Below the pieces are notes generated by a model. That model had not been told where the DNA came from. It saw only the letters and a list, made by a program, of their open reading frames with translations, and searched no databases. Below, piece after piece: positions 13,811-26,159 of a stretch of DNA of 26,159 nt (position 1 is the stretch's first letter; every line of letters starts with the position of its first letter). The DNA is taken from the NCBI GenBank assembly GCA_030753015.1, contig JASMDC010000049.1:1-26159 (forward strand), read 5' to 3'. Made by a program: the position numbers and the translations under genes. This stretch comes from Candidatus Undinarchaeales archaeon (GTDB taxonomy: Archaea; SpSt-1190; JASMDC01).

Positions 13811-15911
13811 CCCACCTTCTCCAATCTAACTCCTGACGACCTTGCTCGCGCCACGTAACTGATCGTGTAATAGCTCCCCCGCTACTGATTTCCCTCTGGA
13901 GTTTGTGGAATCCCCCCCAATAGTTTCCGTCCCGACTTTTTCAAAAAGAGAACACTTAAATAAGATAACTAGATAACATTCATTGGGTGCTCAGAACGTC
14001 CCGACCAAGATCGAAGCTCAACTGGTTTCTCAAGAAGCAGACCCGAACGAAGAAGGGCGACACGCGATACGACTACTACAGCATCGTCGAGCCATACTAC
14101 GAGGACGGGAAGAATAAGCACAGGGTAGTATTCCGGCTCGGGCGATTGATGCCTCAGCAGGCACTTCTCGTCAGGAGCCTGCTCAATGCTGCGAAATCCG
14201 GGGATGACGTGCTCTGTCTGAACATCAAGGACATACTTTTCGAGGACCACTGGAGGTATCTGGACGTCGCCTTCCTCAACCACCTCTGGGACGAGTGGGG
14301 GCTATCGAAGGTGTTCCCGTCGCCCGAGGAAACGAGCAGCAGGAGGGGGAAGGACATCGCGACCGCCGACGTCGCGAAGGCACTGACCTTCTACCGGTGC
14401 CTGGAGCCGGGGAGCTACCTCTCGTCGGCGGGGTGGTTCGAGGGGACGGCATGCGACCGCATCCTCGGCATAGACGGCTCACACTTCAACGACTCCAGGG
14501 TGTACCGGGAGCTGACGGTGATCGACGGGCTCAAGGAGAAGCTGGAGACGTACCTCTACACCACGCTGAGGGACAGGGACGAGGAGAGCTTCAAGGTAAT
14601 CTTCTACGACCTTTCCGACTCGTACTTCGAGGGGACCAAGTGCAAGCTCGCGAAACCGGGGATCACCAAGGCCAACGGCTTCAAGAGCAGGAAGATCGTC
14701 CTCTCCCTCCTCGTCAACTCGATGGGCTACCCCTTCTCGTGGGAGATCCTCCAAGACTACACCTCGGACGTCAAGACGCTCACGGCCAACGCTGACCGGT
14801 GGAAGCAACGGTTCGATCTCCCAAAGATCATCTCGGTGTTCGATCGCGGGATGGTGTCCGACGAGAACCTCAAGCACCTGGAGGAGAGCGAAACCTACCT
14901 GTACATCACCGCCCTCGACAAGGACCAGGTCGCCGGCGTGCCCGGCGTCCGTCTGGACCGGTTCAAGGACCTCACTGTGGAGAATGTCGAGAAGAAGGTC
15001 GGCCGCTCACGGTTCCTCACCAAGTACGACGACTGTGCGTACTACGAGGATCTTGGTACGGCCGAAGGATCGGTCAGGCGTCACATCCTGGGGTTCAACC
15101 CCGAGCTCTTCAAGGACCAGAGGAAGCAGCGCGAGGAGCAGATCAAGAAGGCACTGGACTGCCTGAAGGAGGAAGGGGCGGCGCTGCTGAAGGCGAAGAA
15201 GAGCAGACAGAAGAAGCCGACTGAGCAACGGATCGACCGCAAGCTCAAGAAACTGAACGTGACGCGCTTCATCGGCTACGAGCTCAAGGAAATTGAGCTG
15301 GAGAGCGGGGTGCGGACCTTCGAGCTCAGCTACCGGAAGAAGACAAAGGCGATCGAGAAGGCCAAGTTGACCGACGGCCTCTGGGTACTCGTCACCAGCA
15401 TAACCGCGGATACGCAGCCGAGGGAGTTCAGGCTCGGGCCGGAGGAGATCATCAGGGCCTACCGCGACAAGAACCGCGTGGAGGAGGCGTTCAGGGAGCT
15501 GAAGTCGTTCATCAAGTTCAAGCCGACGTTCGTCTACACAATGGAGCACGTCAGGGCCCATTACACCATCTGCATACTCGCGTATCTCTTGGACGTGACG
15601 GTCACCAACAGGCTGCGCGAGGGCCCGATAGAGGGCATGACCAGTGTGAGGAAGGTGTACAAGCTCCTGGAGCGGATCAGATTGGGAGAGCTGAAACTTC
15701 GGGGCATGGATCGAACGGTGAGAAGGATCGTCACCCCGAGACCGATCGAAAAGGACGTGCTGAGATCATTCGGTTGTGAACACTTGCTGAAGAAGACGTA
15801 TCTTCGGTCGATACAGACCGACTGAGCGGTGAGAACGTGGTTTCAGTCCCGATATTTGAGAGGGGGTTCGTCTCCGTACCACCTTTTCGAGTTTAGACTG
15901 GAGAAGATGGG
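13811..15911 (+). mobile_element. Complete IS1634-family insertion sequence (2101 bp)
   Basis: TIRs 13811-13829 and 15893-15911 match at 17/19 positions. 6-bp direct repeat ATTAAA at 13805-13810 and 15912-15917. Single transposase ORF. Confidence 0.92.
13987..15825 (+). CDS. IS1634 family DDE transposase
   Basis: YDLSDSYFEG, FDRGMVS and VEEAFRELKS catalytic segments; HVRAHYTICILAY; N-terminal YYSIVEPYYEDGK. Confidence 0.92.
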   Translation: MLRTSRPRSKLNWFLKKQTRTKKGDTRYDYYSIVEPYYEDGKNKHRVVFRLGRLMPQQALLVRSLLNAAKSGDDVLCLNIKDILFEDHWRYLDVAFLNHLWDEWGLSKVFPSPEETSSRRGKDIATADVAKALTFYRCLEPGSYLSSAGWFEGTACDRILGIDGSHFNDSRVYRELTVIDGLKEKLETYLYTTLRDRDEESFKVIFYDLSDSYFEGTKCKLAKPGITKANGFKSRKIVLSLLVNSMGYPFSWEILQDYTSDVKTLTANADRWKQRFDLPKIISVFDRGMVSDENLKHLEESETYLYITALDKDQVAGVPGVRLDRFKDLTVENVEKKVGRSRFLTKYDDCAYYEDLGTAEGSVRRHILGFNPELFKDQRKQREEQIKKALDCLKEEGAALLKAKKSRQKKPTEQRIDRKLKKLNVTRFIGYELKEIELESGVRTFELSYRKKTKAIEKAKLTDGLWVLVTSITADTQPREFRLGPEEIIRAYRDKNRVEEAFRELKSFIKFKPTFVYTMEHVRAHYTICILAYLLDVTVTNRLREGPIEGMTSVRKVYKLLERIRLGELKLRGMDRTVRRIVTPRPIEKDVLRSFGCEHLLKKTYLRSIQTD

Positions 15912-19648: not shown

Positions 19649-20713
19649 ATGGGTTCGGACGAGGAAGAGAGCGACATCCTCGACGCCGTGCGCGCCCTGC
19701 TGGACGTGAACCTGGGCGTGCGTGAGGGCGAGTCAGTGCTCGTGGTCACCGACGAGCTCGTCCCGGGAGTGGGGGCGGACCGATCCGCGGAGCTCGTCCG
19801 GGACATCGCCGCTCGCCGCGAGCTTGCCAAAGAGGTGGCGCGGTGCGCCAAGGTCGTGCTCGGGCCTGGGAGGGTGTCCTTCCTCGCGTACCCGGCCCCG
19901 CGCTCCCACGGCTCCGAACCCTCCGCAGAAGCGGTACGTGCCATGGCCGCCGCCGACGTTGTCATCGCCATCACCACATTCTCCATCACCCACACGCGCG
20001 GTCGTGAGGAGGCGTGCGATGCGGGAACCAGGGTGGCATCGATGCCCAGGTTCGAGCGCGGGATGTTCGAGCCCGGGGGTGCTATGTCCGCCGACTATCG
20101 TGCTGTGGGCGAGCGGAGCGAACGCCTGGCCGAGGCCCTTGAAAGCGCGAAGGAGATTCGCATCACAGCACCGGCCGGCACCGACCTGGTGATGAGTGTC
20201 GAGGGCAGGGAGTTCCTCCTGGACACGGGCTCCATCACCGCTCCCGGCGAGATGGGCAATCTCCCCGGCGGCGAGGTGTTCTGCGCGCCCGTGGAGGGTA
20301 CCGCCCGCGGTAGGTTGGTCATCCCGGTCGGCTGGCACGAGGGCCTTGACGGACCCCTCACGCTCGTCATCGCCGACGGCCTCGTGAAGGAGGTCGACGG
20401 GACCGGCCATGCCGTGGATGAGATACGCTCGTTACTTGGCGTCGGTTCGGTCTGCCTCGATCCCGCGAAGGCCGCTGCCCGGCGCAACATCGCCGAGCTG
20501 GGTATCGGGACCAATCCGAACGCACACCGCCCGGACAACGTGCTAGAGTCCGAGAAGATACTGGGCACGGTGCACGTGGCCTTCGGTGACAACTCGCATT
20601 TCGGCGGCTCCGTGGAGGCAGACCTGCATCAGGACCTGGTGATCCCAGAACCGACCATCGACGTGGATGGTCGAATCATCATGGAGCAGGGTAGGCTCCA
20701 GCTCGAGAGGTGA
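19649..20713 (+). CDS. Aminopeptidase (M29 / thermophilic metalloprotease family)
   Basis: HGSEP, SITHT, GNLPGGEVFCAP, NIAELGIGTNP, ESEKILGTVHVAFGDN and HQD motifs. Confidence 0.9.
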   Translation: MGSDEEESDILDAVRALLDVNLGVREGESVLVVTDELVPGVGADRSAELVRDIAARRELAKEVARCAKVVLGPGRVSFLAYPAPRSHGSEPSAEAVRAMAAADVVIAITTFSITHTRGREEACDAGTRVASMPRFERGMFEPGGAMSADYRAVGERSERLAEALESAKEIRITAPAGTDLVMSVEGREFLLDTGSITAPGEMGNLPGGEVFCAPVEGTARGRLVIPVGWHEGLDGPLTLVIADGLVKEVDGTGHAVDEIRSLLGVGSVCLDPAKAAARRNIAELGIGTNPNAHRPDNVLESEKILGTVHVAFGDNSHFGGSVEADLHQDLVIPEPTIDVDGRIIMEQGRLQLER

Positions 20714-22673: not shown

Positions 22674-23270
22674 TCATCGCGGCCAGGTCCACACGTTAAT
22701 CTCCTGCCAGCGTGCCCCCTGCTGCTTCAACACGCCAATGATCCGTGGCGCCTTCTCGGTATCCACCAGAAGGACGCTGTCCGCGACCTTCTCCACGCCC
22801 TCCTCTTCGGCTACACCGCGTGCCCTTGAGACGTATTCTTTGCCTTTCCGGGTGGAACGTGACACTCCTCCATAGAGCGCTCTGCGTATCCTCATCTTGT
22901 CGGATTGTGCAAGACCGCTCATGTCGTACGCGATGAGTACCTTCGGGGCCAGAGCGACATCGTCCGAGGTGACGTTTACGGGCCTCCCATGAAGAAGAAG
23001 GCCCTCGCTTGCCAGCGCACCGGCCAGGGTCGGCTCCTCGGTGAGCCGGGAGAGCGTCAGATGTGTGAGCTGGACCTTCTCGTCCTTGATCGACTCGAGC
23101 TCGGCCTCGGTCCCCGGATTCCTTTTTGCGTACACGACCGCTACGTCTACATCGGAAGTAGGTGTGTCCTCCCCCCGAGCGACCGACCCGAAGAGCACGA
23201 CCTGAAGCACGTCTGGAAAGTCGCGAGCTCGATGTGCGAACGAGATGGCCCGCCGTAGGTTCCCTCTCAC
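22674..23270 (-). CDS. Minimal nucleotidyltransferase (MNT) with C-terminal Cas2/VapD-like domain
   Basis: VVLFGSVARGEDTPTSDVDVAV MNT motif. C-terminal VLIAYDMS...RIRRALYG...VADSVLLV. GTGA overlap with the HEPN gene. Confidence 0.85.
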   Translation of the reverse strand: MRGNLRRAISFAHRARDFPDVLQVVLFGSVARGEDTPTSDVDVAVVYAKRNPGTEAELESIKDEKVQLTHLTLSRLTEEPTLAGALASEGLLLHGRPVNVTSDDVALAPKVLIAYDMSGLAQSDKMRIRRALYGGVSRSTRKGKEYVSRARGVAEEEGVEKVADSVLLVDTEKAPRIIGVLKQQGARWQEINVWTWPR

Positions 23271-23641
23271 GAGGTCTCACCCTCCGTGCAGAGCCCGATG
23301 ATCAGATGTGCGATCTCCCGGGCGACCTTGGCGGACCCGCCGTTCCTGCCTGTCCCATAGACATGGAGCGGTCTCATGCGCTCGATCCGGTCGAGGAGGT
23401 CCGCGACCTCGGCGCTCTTCTCCCCGAGCCGCTCCCAACGACGGAGCTCACCGGGGAGCCGGTTATGCTTGATGTCCTGGCTGACCTTCAACGTACCGCG
23501 CACGTGCATCCCGAGGTTAGCTGCGTGGGAACAGACGAGCACGCACACCTCGATGACCGTCTCGTGGTCCTCTTCATCATCGAGCTTGTCGAGGGTTCTG
23601 AGCATGCGCTCGATCTTCTGACGGTGCATGTCCACACGCAT
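23267..23641 (-). CDS. HEPN-domain protein (putative toxin)
   Basis: 124-aa all-helical protein with KHNRL and ERMRPLHVYG (R-x4-Y variant), coupled to the MNT gene. Confidence 0.65.
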   Translation of the reverse strand: MRVDMHRQKIERMLRTLDKLDDEEDHETVIEVCVLVCSHAANLGMHVRGTLKVSQDIKHNRLPGELRRWERLGEKSAEVADLLDRIERMRPLHVYGTGRNGGSAKVAREIAHLIIGLCTEGETS

Positions 23642-23762: not shown

Positions 23763-25277
23763 TCACCCCGCCAGCAGCTGCCAGCACTTCTCCGTGGCCT
23801 CGAGGCGCTTGGTGGCGCCGTCCTCGACCTCCACGAGATAGCCGAGCCTGATGAGCTCGCGGATGCGCTTTCGTGCCGTGGGCTTGCTGATGGCAAGCTC
23901 CCGGTCCACGTCCGAGTAGGAGGGTCGCTCCCCGTCGAGCCCGGTACGGTACACGTACCGCACGATGGCCAGCAGCTCCTCCGAGATCCCGCCGAGCTCG
24001 CGTGCGTCCACCTGCTCGCATTCCTTCTCCAAGCGGCGTAGCGCGCGCTCGTCCAGGTCCGACGGATCGACGCCAAGGACGATGACATGACCGCCCACAT
24101 AGGCCATCTCCCGCAGGTGCTGCACGAAGGAAAGCGTGGCCTCCAGCCCGTTCTTGAACAGGATGTAGTCGAGCCGGTCGATGAGGACGGCGCTGTGCCG
24201 TGGCAAACCGCCTATGCGGCGCTCGAGCGCGGTCAGCCGCGGCGGCACTCCCCGCTCGCCACCATGCTCGGCCAGCCAGACATAATCGTACTCGCCTTCG
24301 AGGTCCTTGCGGAACGCCTCCTCGGTCGTGCACGAGATGACCGTCCCGTCGTAGCCCGTGGTAAGGAGGTCCTTGAACGCTTCGACGTAGTGGCGGTGGG
24401 TGCGGCCTTTCATAAGATAGACCTGCCCCTCATCGAGGAGATAGCGCATCAGCCTGCGGCGCAGTAAGCGCTCGGCCTCACGTCGCTCGGTGACGTCCTC
24501 GAGCGACAGCAGGACACGCTCACCATGGCCGGGCCGTCGCTGGAGCCGGCGTGCGCTCAGCAGCATCGTCCGCGTCCCGGCCCCAGGGAGCTCGCACCCC
24601 ATCTCGGCCCCGTCGACCGGCTGGCCCTTCTGCAGGACGTCCTCGAGCAGGCGCCGCAGTCGCCACACGTCCCACTGCCCGCCGCCCAGCCCGTAGAGCG
24701 GGCGTCCCTCGGTGCGCTTTCCCGTGGTACGGAAGGTACGATAGAACGCTCGGTTGGCCGAGAGCACCTTGAGCCCGTCGTCCAGCACCACGAGCGGTAC
24801 GGGGACTGTCTCGACGATGTTCACCGCGAATTCCTGGAGCTGCTGCTCGGCCTGCTCGAGCTGGCGACGCGCGGTGACATCGACCATGAACTCGATCACG
24901 TGGGTGACCGCGCCCTTCTGGTCGTGGACGGGATAGACGTGAATCTCCGTTGTCAGCGGTTGTCCCTCGGCGTCCTTGTGTACGTGGTCGACCGTTACGG
25001 CATTGCCCGTCCGCACCACCTCGTCGAGCGGGCAGGGCTCGTCATCGCCCGTGCACGGGATGTCCCGCTCGTGGGTGAGCTCGTGGCACGTGATACCCTC
25101 TCTGAACTCACCGCTCGGGCCAGCGGTGTTGGCGGCGACCACTTGGTGCGTACGGGCGTCTATTACCATGAACGTGTGCGGGTGGTGGTCGAGGAACGAG
25201 CGGAGCACACGCTCGCCCAGCGTTCCGTCGCTCCCGACATGCTTGCCACCGGCCATGAGGGTGCTTTTTTTCACCAT
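23763..25277 (-). CDS. PAS-PAS-DUF835-wHTH one-component regulator
   Basis: PAS1 with TCHELTH...PC...PCP. PAS2 IVETVPVPLVVLD...ANRAFYRTF...GQWD. DUF835-like VLIDRLDYILFKNG. wHTH SYSDVDRELAISKPTARKRIRELIRLGYL. Confidence 0.85.
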   Translation of the reverse strand: MVKKSTLMAGGKHVGSDGTLGERVLRSFLDHHPHTFMVIDARTHQVVAANTAGPSGEFREGITCHELTHERDIPCTGDDEPCPLDEVVRTGNAVTVDHVHKDAEGQPLTTEIHVYPVHDQKGAVTHVIEFMVDVTARRQLEQAEQQLQEFAVNIVETVPVPLVVLDDGLKVLSANRAFYRTFRTTGKRTEGRPLYGLGGGQWDVWRLRRLLEDVLQKGQPVDGAEMGCELPGAGTRTMLLSARRLQRRPGHGERVLLSLEDVTERREAERLLRRRLMRYLLDEGQVYLMKGRTHRHYVEAFKDLLTTGYDGTVISCTTEEAFRKDLEGEYDYVWLAEHGGERGVPPRLTALERRIGGLPRHSAVLIDRLDYILFKNGLEATLSFVQHLREMAYVGGHVIVLGVDPSDLDERALRRLEKECEQVDARELGGISEELLAIVRYVYRTGLDGERPSYSDVDRELAISKPTARKRIRELIRLGYLVEVEDGATKRLEATEKCWQLLAG

Positions 25278-26159
25278 CCTCCCTCCAAGGAAGCCCCCCA
25301 ATTCATTGGGGGGATGAATTGGAGAGTAGTACGTCGTGACACCTTCGCCGTGAACCCTCCCTGGGAGAAATACCGGCACGCTGCCCCCCAAATTGATAAA
25401 TGAGCTAAATGATAGAACATGGACTGATGGAGCAGACGATCATCGTCAAGCTCGACACGACGGTTGAGCAGCATGACAAGCTCCTTTGGACAATGAAGAC
25501 GTTCAACGCCGCCTGCAACCATGTAGCTGGGTTTGCCTTCGATCTCCGAACAGCCAGCAAGTTCCGGCTTCAGCACGGTATCTATCATGAGGTTAGGGAG
25601 AGGTTCGGCCTCTCTGCTCAGATGACCGTGAGGGCCATCTCCAAGGTCTGCGAGGTCTACAAGCGGGACAAAAGCATCAAGCCGACATTCCAGAAGCGGG
25701 GAGGAATGGTCTACGACCAACGCATCATGTCGTGGAAGGGGCTTGAGAAGGTATCTCTCCTGACACTCGAAGGACGGGAGATAATCCCCATCCGCATAGG
25801 CGAGTACCAAGAGTTGAGGTTGAAGAACCACATCCGTGGTCAGGTAGACCTCATCTACCGCAAGGGGAGGTTCTACCTCGCGGTTGTAGTCGATGCTCCC
25901 GAGGCCGATGAGTTCGATGCCGTTGGTGCGCTCGGCGTGGACCTCGGACTCAACAACCTCGCCGTCGACAGCGACGGTGACTCGTACAGTGGGAAGGATG
26001 TCGATACCGTACGCGTCAGGACGGACAGGCTCAAAGCATCTCTCCAGCGGAAAGGGACCAAGAGTGCTAAGCGGCATCTCAAGAAGCTCTCCGGCAGGGA
26101 GAATCGTTTCCGTCGCAATACTAATCATATCATCTCGAAGCGTCTGGTGGCGAAAGCCA
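25275..26159 (+). mobile_element. IS200/IS605-family (IS1341-type, tnpB-only as far as visible) element, truncated by window end
   Basis: Left-end hairpin CCCCCCAATTCATTGGGGGG (25294-25313), with GAAG at +16..+19 after the TCAC target (25271-25274). tnpB follows ~150 nt later, with no tnpA ORF between. Confidence 0.85.
25427..26159 (+). CDS. tnpB: RNA-guided endonuclease TnpB (5' partial, absent from ORF track)
   Basis: Open to the window end: MEQTIIVKL...FNAACN...RERFGLSAQMTVRAISKV...YDQR...LGVDLGLNNLAVDSDG (RuvC-I Asp)...NHIISKRLV. Confidence 0.95.
   Translation, partial: MEQTIIVKLDTTVEQHDKLLWTMKTFNAACNHVAGFAFDLRTASKFRLQHGIYHEVRERFGLSAQMTVRAISKVCEVYKRDKSIKPTFQKRGGMVYDQRIMSWKGLEKVSLLTLEGREIIPIRIGEYQELRLKNHIRGQVDLIYRKGRFYLAVVVDAPEADEFDAVGALGVDLGLNNLAVDSDGDSYSGKDVDTVRVRTDRLKASLQRKGTKSAKRHLKKLSGRENRFRRNTNHIISKRLVAKA

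Follow-up and report, generated by a model that had tools for sequence, protein, structure and literature searches.

We analysed a 26,159-nt stretch of DNA from a marine Candidatus Undinarchaeales archaeon. This stretch, henceforth referred to as the window, is the whole of contig JASMDC010000049.1 (C61) of a 3.85-Mb genome (assembly GCA_030753015.1) that is 98.9% complete, has a guanine plus cytosine (GC) content of 66% and encodes four TATA-binding protein (TBP) genes. At its right end, the left end of an insertion sequence (IS) of the IS200/IS605 family that carries only tnpB abuts the start of a minus-strand gene for a PAS-domain regulator. The contig end falls inside tnpB. Read outward on the minus strand, the tip of the element resembles a Shine-Dalgarno (SD) sequence followed by an ATG. 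We judge it probable, although with some reserve, that this is an ordinary tnpB-only left end at the start of the PAS gene, and that the SD and ATG are by-products of the end structure and the target motif rather than signals evolved for the purpose. We reach this view because the target motif mimics a start codon or the tail of an SD, and because a stem in the left end requires the bases CTCC. The features concerned, by position in the window, are the following.

23763-25277, minus strand: PAS-PAS-DUF835 regulator with a C-terminal helix-turn-helix, 504 amino acids as called (Pfam PAS_9, PAS_4 and DUF835).
25271-25274, plus strand: TCAC, the target and cleavage motif, in host DNA; it precedes 4 of 4 left ends and is predicted by the guide GAAG.
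25275-25289, plus strand: linker CATCCTCCCTCCAAG, the first 15 nt of the element, between the cleavage site and the guide.
25286-25278 and 25277-25275, minus strand: GGAGGGAGG and ATG, the outward reading of the tip, both transposon DNA.
25283-25288, plus strand: 5' arm of a lower stem, CTCCAA, pairing with TTGGAG at 25319-25324 (DNA fold and covariation).
25290-25293, plus strand: guide tetranucleotide GAAG at element positions +16 to +19, by the IS608 rule.
25294-25313, plus strand: subterminal left-end hairpin CCCCCCAATTCATTGGGGGG with an 8-bp stem and a 4-nt loop, kept in 4 of 4 copies.
25319-25324, plus strand: 3' arm of the lower stem, TTGGAG (DNA fold and covariation).
25393-25400, plus strand: A/T-rich box TTGATAAA (complement TTTATCAA), 27-32 nt upstream of the ATG at 25427; GATAAA is kept in other copies.
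25427-26159, plus strand: first 244 codons of tnpB, cut by the contig end (Pfam OrfB_IS605, PF01385).

The first base of the element is 25275, just 3' of the TCAC target. A BLAST search of positions 25201-26159 against the own genome (G000) returned four left ends, on contigs C61, C66, C56 and C75. Similarity among these copies begins at TCAC in all four, and the DNA 5' of it is unrelated. The element start after TCAC is common to all of them, and no start downstream of 25286 was seen. The copies are diverged (84-93% identity). An empty site of the C56 copy is present in G001, a genome of the same genus, where TCAC is directly joined to sequence matching the right-end flank on contig C40 (87% identity across about 590 nt) and there is no target-site duplication. 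A first-pass annotation, made from the letters of the window, had placed the boundary at 25274/25275, and the four left ends, the empty site and the guide rule described below agree with that placement. It had also held that the SD-like run and the ATG are transposon sequence in frame with the PAS gene, which the boundary and the open reading frame (ORF) support.

One complete copy of the element, 1290 nt long, was found on a metagenome contig of the same organism (L097), and this was the only contig returned by a pattern scan of metagenomes for more copies of the subfamily. The subfamily sample thus comprises four left ends and at least one additional left flank, known from no more than a 30-letter loose end in sequencing run X2. 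A join of C61 to C40, suggested by a common 77-mer, was rejected by synteny; the C40 flank belongs to the C56 copy, and the flank on C11 was assigned by synteny to the C66 copy. The filled junction at the PAS gene was bridged with 0 differences by contigs of all four runs examined, which come from four studies. A look for RNA runs that contain the locus returned none. No empty allele of the PAS-gene site was found in a DNA search of 41 genomes (G000 and 40 relatives), which matched only G000. No loose end behind 25274 was seen in contigs of the four runs, an absence that is unproven because contigs drop rare variants. In run X2, a loose end before 25269 exposes a further left-end flank that is absent from the assembly. 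Its 30 letters, read outward from the GTG, give a signal-peptide-like translation, VKSAWALLATIC, and could mark a second copy at a gene start.

The ends follow the guide rule of IS608 from H. pylori. Left-end cleavage of IS608 takes place 19 nt from the hairpin foot, and a 4-nt guide stands 5' of that foot; guide base g1 pairs with -3 (C-3), g2 with -4 (T-4) and g4 with -1, whereas A-2 stays unpaired and A+18 flips out to insert into the protein (from the sections of He et al. 2011, PMC3201880, consulted here). The window element resembles IS608 in inserting 3' of a tetranucleotide that lies outside the element, in its 15-nt linker, 4-nt guide and hairpin foot with cleavage 19 nt from the foot, and in a right-end cleavage site inside the element a few nt 3' of the right hairpin. 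As in IS608, there are no inverted repeats and no target duplication; terminal inverted repeats were not found, and subterminal hairpins stand at both ends. The right end reads CAAG, hairpin, four bases and TGAC (C40, C11 and L097), so that the rule holds at both ends, with GAAG giving TCAC on the left and CAAG giving TGAC on the right. The first-pass mapping of the GAAG guide to a TCAC target accordingly matches the IS608 rule as given in those sections, the copies and the C56 empty site. Whereas the IS608 target is TTAC and its guide AAAG, the pairs here are TCAC/GAAG on the left and TGAC/CAAG on the right. The window element further differs in having no tnpA, in an extra covarying lower stem and in its archaeal host.

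We examined the ends of related elements. Similarity retrieved 80 related loci, and ends were examined in 51 (50 of the 80 plus a further copy, L100); 29 further loci, namely L044, L085, L089, L090, L092, L093 and the actinobacterial loci, were unexamined for ends. Many of the actinobacterial related loci have an upstream region in common, which is possibly coding. Ends were called in 35 of the 51 loci, with a target-hairpin distance of 9-16 nt in the algorithm, and of the 16 loci without a call, L040 and L088 were placed by separate inspection and the others left out. In the 35 related ends, GAAG or GATG goes with TCAC (26 ends), GAAA or GAGA with TCAT (8) and AAGA with TTAT (1). The algorithm demands the IS608 guide rule, so these pairing counts are partly circular; for three guide/target pairs the rule is checked independently, by comparison of copies and by empty sites. 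The locus offers a fully resolved illustration, from an archaeon, of the IS608 guide rule, with clear guide/target covariation over 35 related ends.

The single-stranded DNA of the left end folds into the hairpin and a lower stem (-13.2 kcal/mol, z = -2.25). Across the family, element positions 9-14 pair with a six-base stretch beyond the hairpin, from which a 5-nt loop separates it. Over 37 distinct left ends, pairing is seen in register at 122 of 222 lower-stem positions and at 31-78 once the 3' arm is moved by 1-3 nt. The script misjudged the hairpin register in C61 and C75, where the pairing was taken by eye and from the DNA fold. Compensatory pairs include CCGCAA/TTGCAG, GGCCCA/TGGGCC, GGCGCA/TGCGCC and CTCCGT/ACGGAG. 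The lower stem flanks a 5+5-nt internal loop whose two sides contain the guide and (A/T)GGAA, respectively. It appears to be previously unremarked, being absent from the consulted sections of the IS608 description (PMC3201880). Since CTCC is one arm of this covarying stem, the hairpin-nearest GGAG of the outward reading is a structural requirement of the transposon DNA.

We assessed whether the tip is adapted to restore translation of disrupted genes, as the first-pass annotation had suggested. The four copies argue against this for the present subfamily. Element positions 1-3 read CAT, AAT, CAT and CAA, so that the outward ATG is present in two of four copies, and only one of the four lies at a gene start. 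That annotation had also raised the question of whether flanking ORFs are in frame with this ATG, and only the C61 copy continues into a long in-frame ORF; the in-frame outward reads of the C56, C66 and C75 copies end after about 12, 29 and 57 codons. The first 8 nt of the end vary freely across the 35 related left ends. Neither conservation of the tip signal beyond background divergence nor its recurrent use at other insertions was found. A literature search of limited coverage returned no description of an IS200/IS605 end that supplies a ribosome-binding site (RBS) or a start codon.

The other three insertions have settings of their own. The C56 copy lies within an NnrD-like gene, 8 nt short of its stop codon, as read from the G001 empty site. 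The C75 copy seems to split a small ORF that is read in another frame and lies just upstream of a nucleotidyltransferase-like gene (G000:C75 187-395, and L097); this split ORF had no Pfam match. The C66 copy adjoins another repeat. About 231 nt beside it (G000:C66 about 19650-19882; L014 2885-3115) are missing from the syntenic site in G001, and the last 88 nt of this stretch recur at at least three places in G001 at 78-81% identity. With its CCTCTCC...GGAGAGG palindrome, the stretch is probably another small repeat or a miniature inverted-repeat transposable element (MITE).

We examined how the junction could serve the PAS gene. A long minus-strand ORF, 23763-25391, runs through the element tip (...GGRMVKKSTLMAGGKH...). 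On the minus strand, 25286-25275 reads GGAGGGAGGATG and is followed by GTG AAA AAA, so that the junction is GGAGGGAGG ATG GTG AAA AAA, in frame with the 504-codon gene. Three codons are candidate PAS starts: the transposon-borne ATG at 25277, the target-derived GTG at 25274 and the ATG at 25256. The GTG at 25274-25272, which arises because the complement of TCAC is GTGA, is one candidate for the native start. The exact 504-amino-acid protein that begins at the transposon ATG is on record from 14 contigs. The PAS protein in the databases therefore begins with a transposon-encoded methionine, and its annotated start needs caution. Ahead of its first PAS domain the protein has an N-terminal leader comparable in length to that of the homologue P0002, which indicates that no domain of the PAS protein was lost.

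To place these codons, we surveyed the sequences before the first ATG in 2727 ORFs from the own genome, each 250 codons or longer. The start positions of GGAGG peak at -15 to -12 (31, 27, 43 and 38 ORFs, over a background of about 3-8); this covers 139 of the 2727 ORFs, so a minority of genes have an SD. GGTGA peaks at -11 and -10 (46 and 34 ORFs). The three candidates compare as follows.

GTG at 25274, minus strand: element GGAGG at -12 and -8, with survey counts of 38 and 8.
ATG at 25277, minus strand: element GGAGG at -9 and -5, with survey counts of 16 and 7.
ATG at 25256, minus strand: junction GGTGA at -19, a position for which no count was given.

Because a GGAGG at -12 has the preferred spacing, the best-placed codon is the target-derived GTG at 25274.

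We propose the following course of events. The element would have inserted by single-strand peel-and-paste 3' of a TCAC that is the complement of a GTGA at the very 5' end of the PAS gene, at a distance of 0 nt to the GTG, with the next ATG 18 nt away. The pyrimidine-rich linker would then, by happenstance, have set GGAGGGAGG-ATG on the opposite strand against the target-derived GTG. The outcome would be a chimeric translation-initiation region in which gene callers take the transposon ATG. This region may act as a surrogate RBS for the regulator, in which case translation would now use the signals of the tip and transcription would come from inside or through the element.

We compared the distances of ends to gene starts at 39 unique left-end sites (35 related and 4 own). 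An outward ORF of at least 90 codons starts within 60 nt at 12 of the 39. By NCBIfam profile coordinates, native starts lie at 0 nt in L037, L040 and L088, and at 5 nt in L019, 7 nt in L034, 9 nt in L030, 15 nt in L100 and 19 nt in L080; a native start at 16 nt in L023 is weakly supported. Right ends could be placed in 17 of the 35 loci, and a long ORF starts within 60 nt in 5 of these 17. Pfam backs at least two of the five as whole genes, one of them starting 1 nt after the end. A Latescibacterota subfamily with target TTCAT, henceforth group B, is treated separately below. Among the 34 sites outside group B (counted by eye), at most six TCAC-type left ends lie 0-19 nt from a start, five of them supported by homology and the sixth being the unverified C61. 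A rough null was drawn from about 150 kb of Latescibacterota flanks with crude gene calls. In this null, the share of non-genic sites that stand at a start, or no more than 19 nt upstream of one, is 0.14-0.18 for TCAC or TTCAC and 0.19 for TTCAT. The closeness of TCAC-type ends to starts, the window copy included, is about what surviving non-genic insertions give. The target complements GTGA and GGTGA are themselves part of start and SD signals. Since start codons and the tail of the SD are complementary to the target motifs of the family, many insertions fall within 20 nt of gene starts.

Four points weigh against this reading or against parts of it. First, the single-stranded DNA fold implies that the lower stem of an outward transcript would hold the first GGAG, which argues against surrogate use; this leaves a GGAGG only 3 nt from the GTG, off the preferred spacing. 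Second, element positions 4-12 are pyrimidine in all four copies, with three differences that are all transitions, and the purine run thus kept on the outward strand could reflect a constraint beyond the stem. Third, the right flank of the C61 copy was not recovered in the assembly, and the native sequence upstream of the PAS gene is hence not readable. Synteny with G001 points to the end of contig C20 for this flank. Fourth, the pattern in group B is hard to explain by chance and is a lead towards selection for such ends somewhere in the family.

Next to the PAS locus, both genomes of the genus have a very large gene composed of tandem repeats, each about 150-290 nt long (G000:C20 89528-92843; L098 9551-12904). 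C20 breaks inside this gene, which accounts for the assembly break.

The insertion might instead have decapitated the PAS gene. The gene would then be silent, cut from its promoter and 5' signals, intact-looking and heading to decay, and the SD and ATG would be irrelevant. The genus appears able to do without the gene: G001 has neither the element nor the PAS gene at the syntenic place and keeps there a remnant that matches the last 46 PAS residues only. Shortened forms are also on record. In P0001, a relative with 95% identity, the annotation begins no earlier than residue 226, and for P0122 one ENA contig encodes a 218-residue form that diverges after about residue 202; they may be signs that the gene is dispensable or decaying elsewhere, although they may also be assembly or calling artefacts. 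No TATA-like box was found 25-30 nt upstream of any of the three candidate PAS starts, and tnpB-only copies cannot be excised here since there is no tnpA. Against decapitation, the gene has 504 codons without a stop in a genome of 66% GC, with all domains whole, and the filled allele has an unchanged 5' half in the contigs of the four runs. We consider decapitation unlikely.

A further alternative is that the left end was selected to carry an outward SD and start, which would keep host genes translated after insertion at GTGA or ATGA start sites and so make insertion less costly. For the window element, the GGAGG at -12 of the GTG, at the preferred spacing of the genome, and the purine run kept in all four copies are in its favour. 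The ATG in only two of four copies, the single copy at a gene start and the unconserved first 8 nt speak against it, as does the explanation of CTCC by the lower stem. Right ends, moreover, are as near to gene starts as left ends. Further support for selection comes from group B, whose TnpB is about 49% identical to that of the C11 sibling copy used as query.

In group B the target is TTCAT, the guide is GAAA and the end reads TTT(T/A)CCTCC (TTTACCTCC), so that its complement GGAGG(T/A)AAA stands directly before a target-derived ATG. An outward ORF of at least 220 codons begins at this ATG at 5 of 5 unique sites (L037, L040, L088, L100 and L122), to be set against the null share of 0.19 for TTCAT. 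Three of the five genes have native N-termini by profile, namely Ddl (488 bits, cut-off 457), a sulfatase and an RbsB-like binding protein. In each of these, NCBIfam aligns residues 1-8 to profile positions 1-8. For the remaining two, one native start lies 15 nt further in and one start is unverified. Orthologous loci in sister genomes (L137-L145) are empty, in 5 of 5 cases for ddl and 4 of 4 matching cases for the binding protein. At these empty sites TTCAT is followed at once by the DNA of the right-end flank, so the insertion falls exactly between the 5' untranslated region (UTR) and the ATG, and the element has replaced the whole native 5' UTR. In the filled genome, no match other than this ddl gene exceeds the cut-off. 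Ddl is normally essential. From these two facts we infer that ddl must still be expressed there. In a sister subfamily with the same hairpin, guide GAAG and target TCAC, and without CCTCC, 0 of 5 unique sites lie at the start of a long ORF.

The group B pattern has its own weaknesses. The sample is small, the pattern was noticed post hoc, the genomes are metagenome-assembled genomes (MAGs), and two of the five ends have CCTGC rather than CCTCC. The extended targets are T-rich upstream, with TTTTTCAT in three of five (complement ATGAAAAA), which alone favours Met-Lys starts. A scan found no outward sigma-70-like promoter in a group B end. The general idea of translation-restoring ends gains support from the Latescibacterota subfamily and not from the one in the window. 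For the window element itself, selection of the tip is improbable. We entertain, tentatively and short of thinking it likely, the broader proposal that some tnpB-only IS200/IS605 lineages have turned the left tip into a portable RBS beside a target that is the complement of a start codon (TTCAT/ATGAA; TCAC/GTGA). Group B would be the clear candidate, and the window element a weaker and possibly incipient one. If this is true, an element can land on a start codon and replace the 5' UTR while even an essential gene such as ddl stays translated. Should the lead from group B hold, it would represent a novel means by which selfish elements become less costly to their host, and a source of chimeric N-termini and rewired 5' UTRs.

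It is very improbable that the PAS gene natively starts at the ATG at 25256, with a leaderless or short-leader mRNA made from a promoter inside the element (e.g., the divergent TATA region of tnpB at 25393-25400) and with the SD and ATG of the tip as bystanders: the host is an archaeon with four TBP genes and an SD in a minority of genes, and the A/T-rich box reads TTTATC on the minus strand, but that box is placed for tnpB, and a start about 25 nt past it would give a leader of about 115 nt to 25256, which is not leaderless.

The A/T-rich box is most likely the TATA box of tnpB itself. The first-pass annotation had read it as a possible outward TATA, yet the position of TTTATCAA and the conservation of GATAAA fit tnpB better. 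The real start of tnpB is the ATG at 25427, since MEQT(I/L)(I/V)VKLD is common to the copies. A full-length TnpB sibling of 378 amino acids matches PF01385 and PF07282 (Cas12f1-like TNB domain). The Y1 (HUH) transposase TnpA was searched for with PF01797, which had no match in the own genome and gave positive controls in 6 of 14 genomes. Without a Y1 transposase gene, the element is non-autonomous and falls into the transposase-less subgroup. It is an ordinary member, of about 1.29 kb, of the known IS200/IS605 family, carries only tnpB, and is IS1341-like.

The element shares with IS1341-type, tnpB-only elements a single tnpB (OrfB_IS605 and TNB zinc-ribbon) between hairpin-bearing ends, multiple diverged copies and dependence on a transposase in trans; it differs in that no tnpA was found anywhere in this genome. 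Its TnpB can be likened, from genes alone, to the ISDra2 type, for which a TnpB-omegaRNA system was reportedly described by Karvelis and colleagues in 2021. The ends of IS1, IS2, IS10 and ISAba1 drive neighbouring genes through outward or hybrid promoters. The window resembles these cases in that an IS end abuts a gene and bears candidate expression signals. It differs in that the putative signal would be an RBS and a start codon rather than a promoter.

Two further features lie elsewhere in the window. At 13987-15825 on the plus strand there is a second mobile element, an IS1634-family transposase gene (NCBIfam, 244 bits, cut-off 100). Between the PAS gene and the genes syntenic with G001, at 22674-23641 on the minus strand, two adjacent ORFs resemble, from their translations, a nucleotidyltransferase/HEPN pair. 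The pair is absent from the syntenic place in G001 and is probably an inserted toxin-antitoxin-like cassette.

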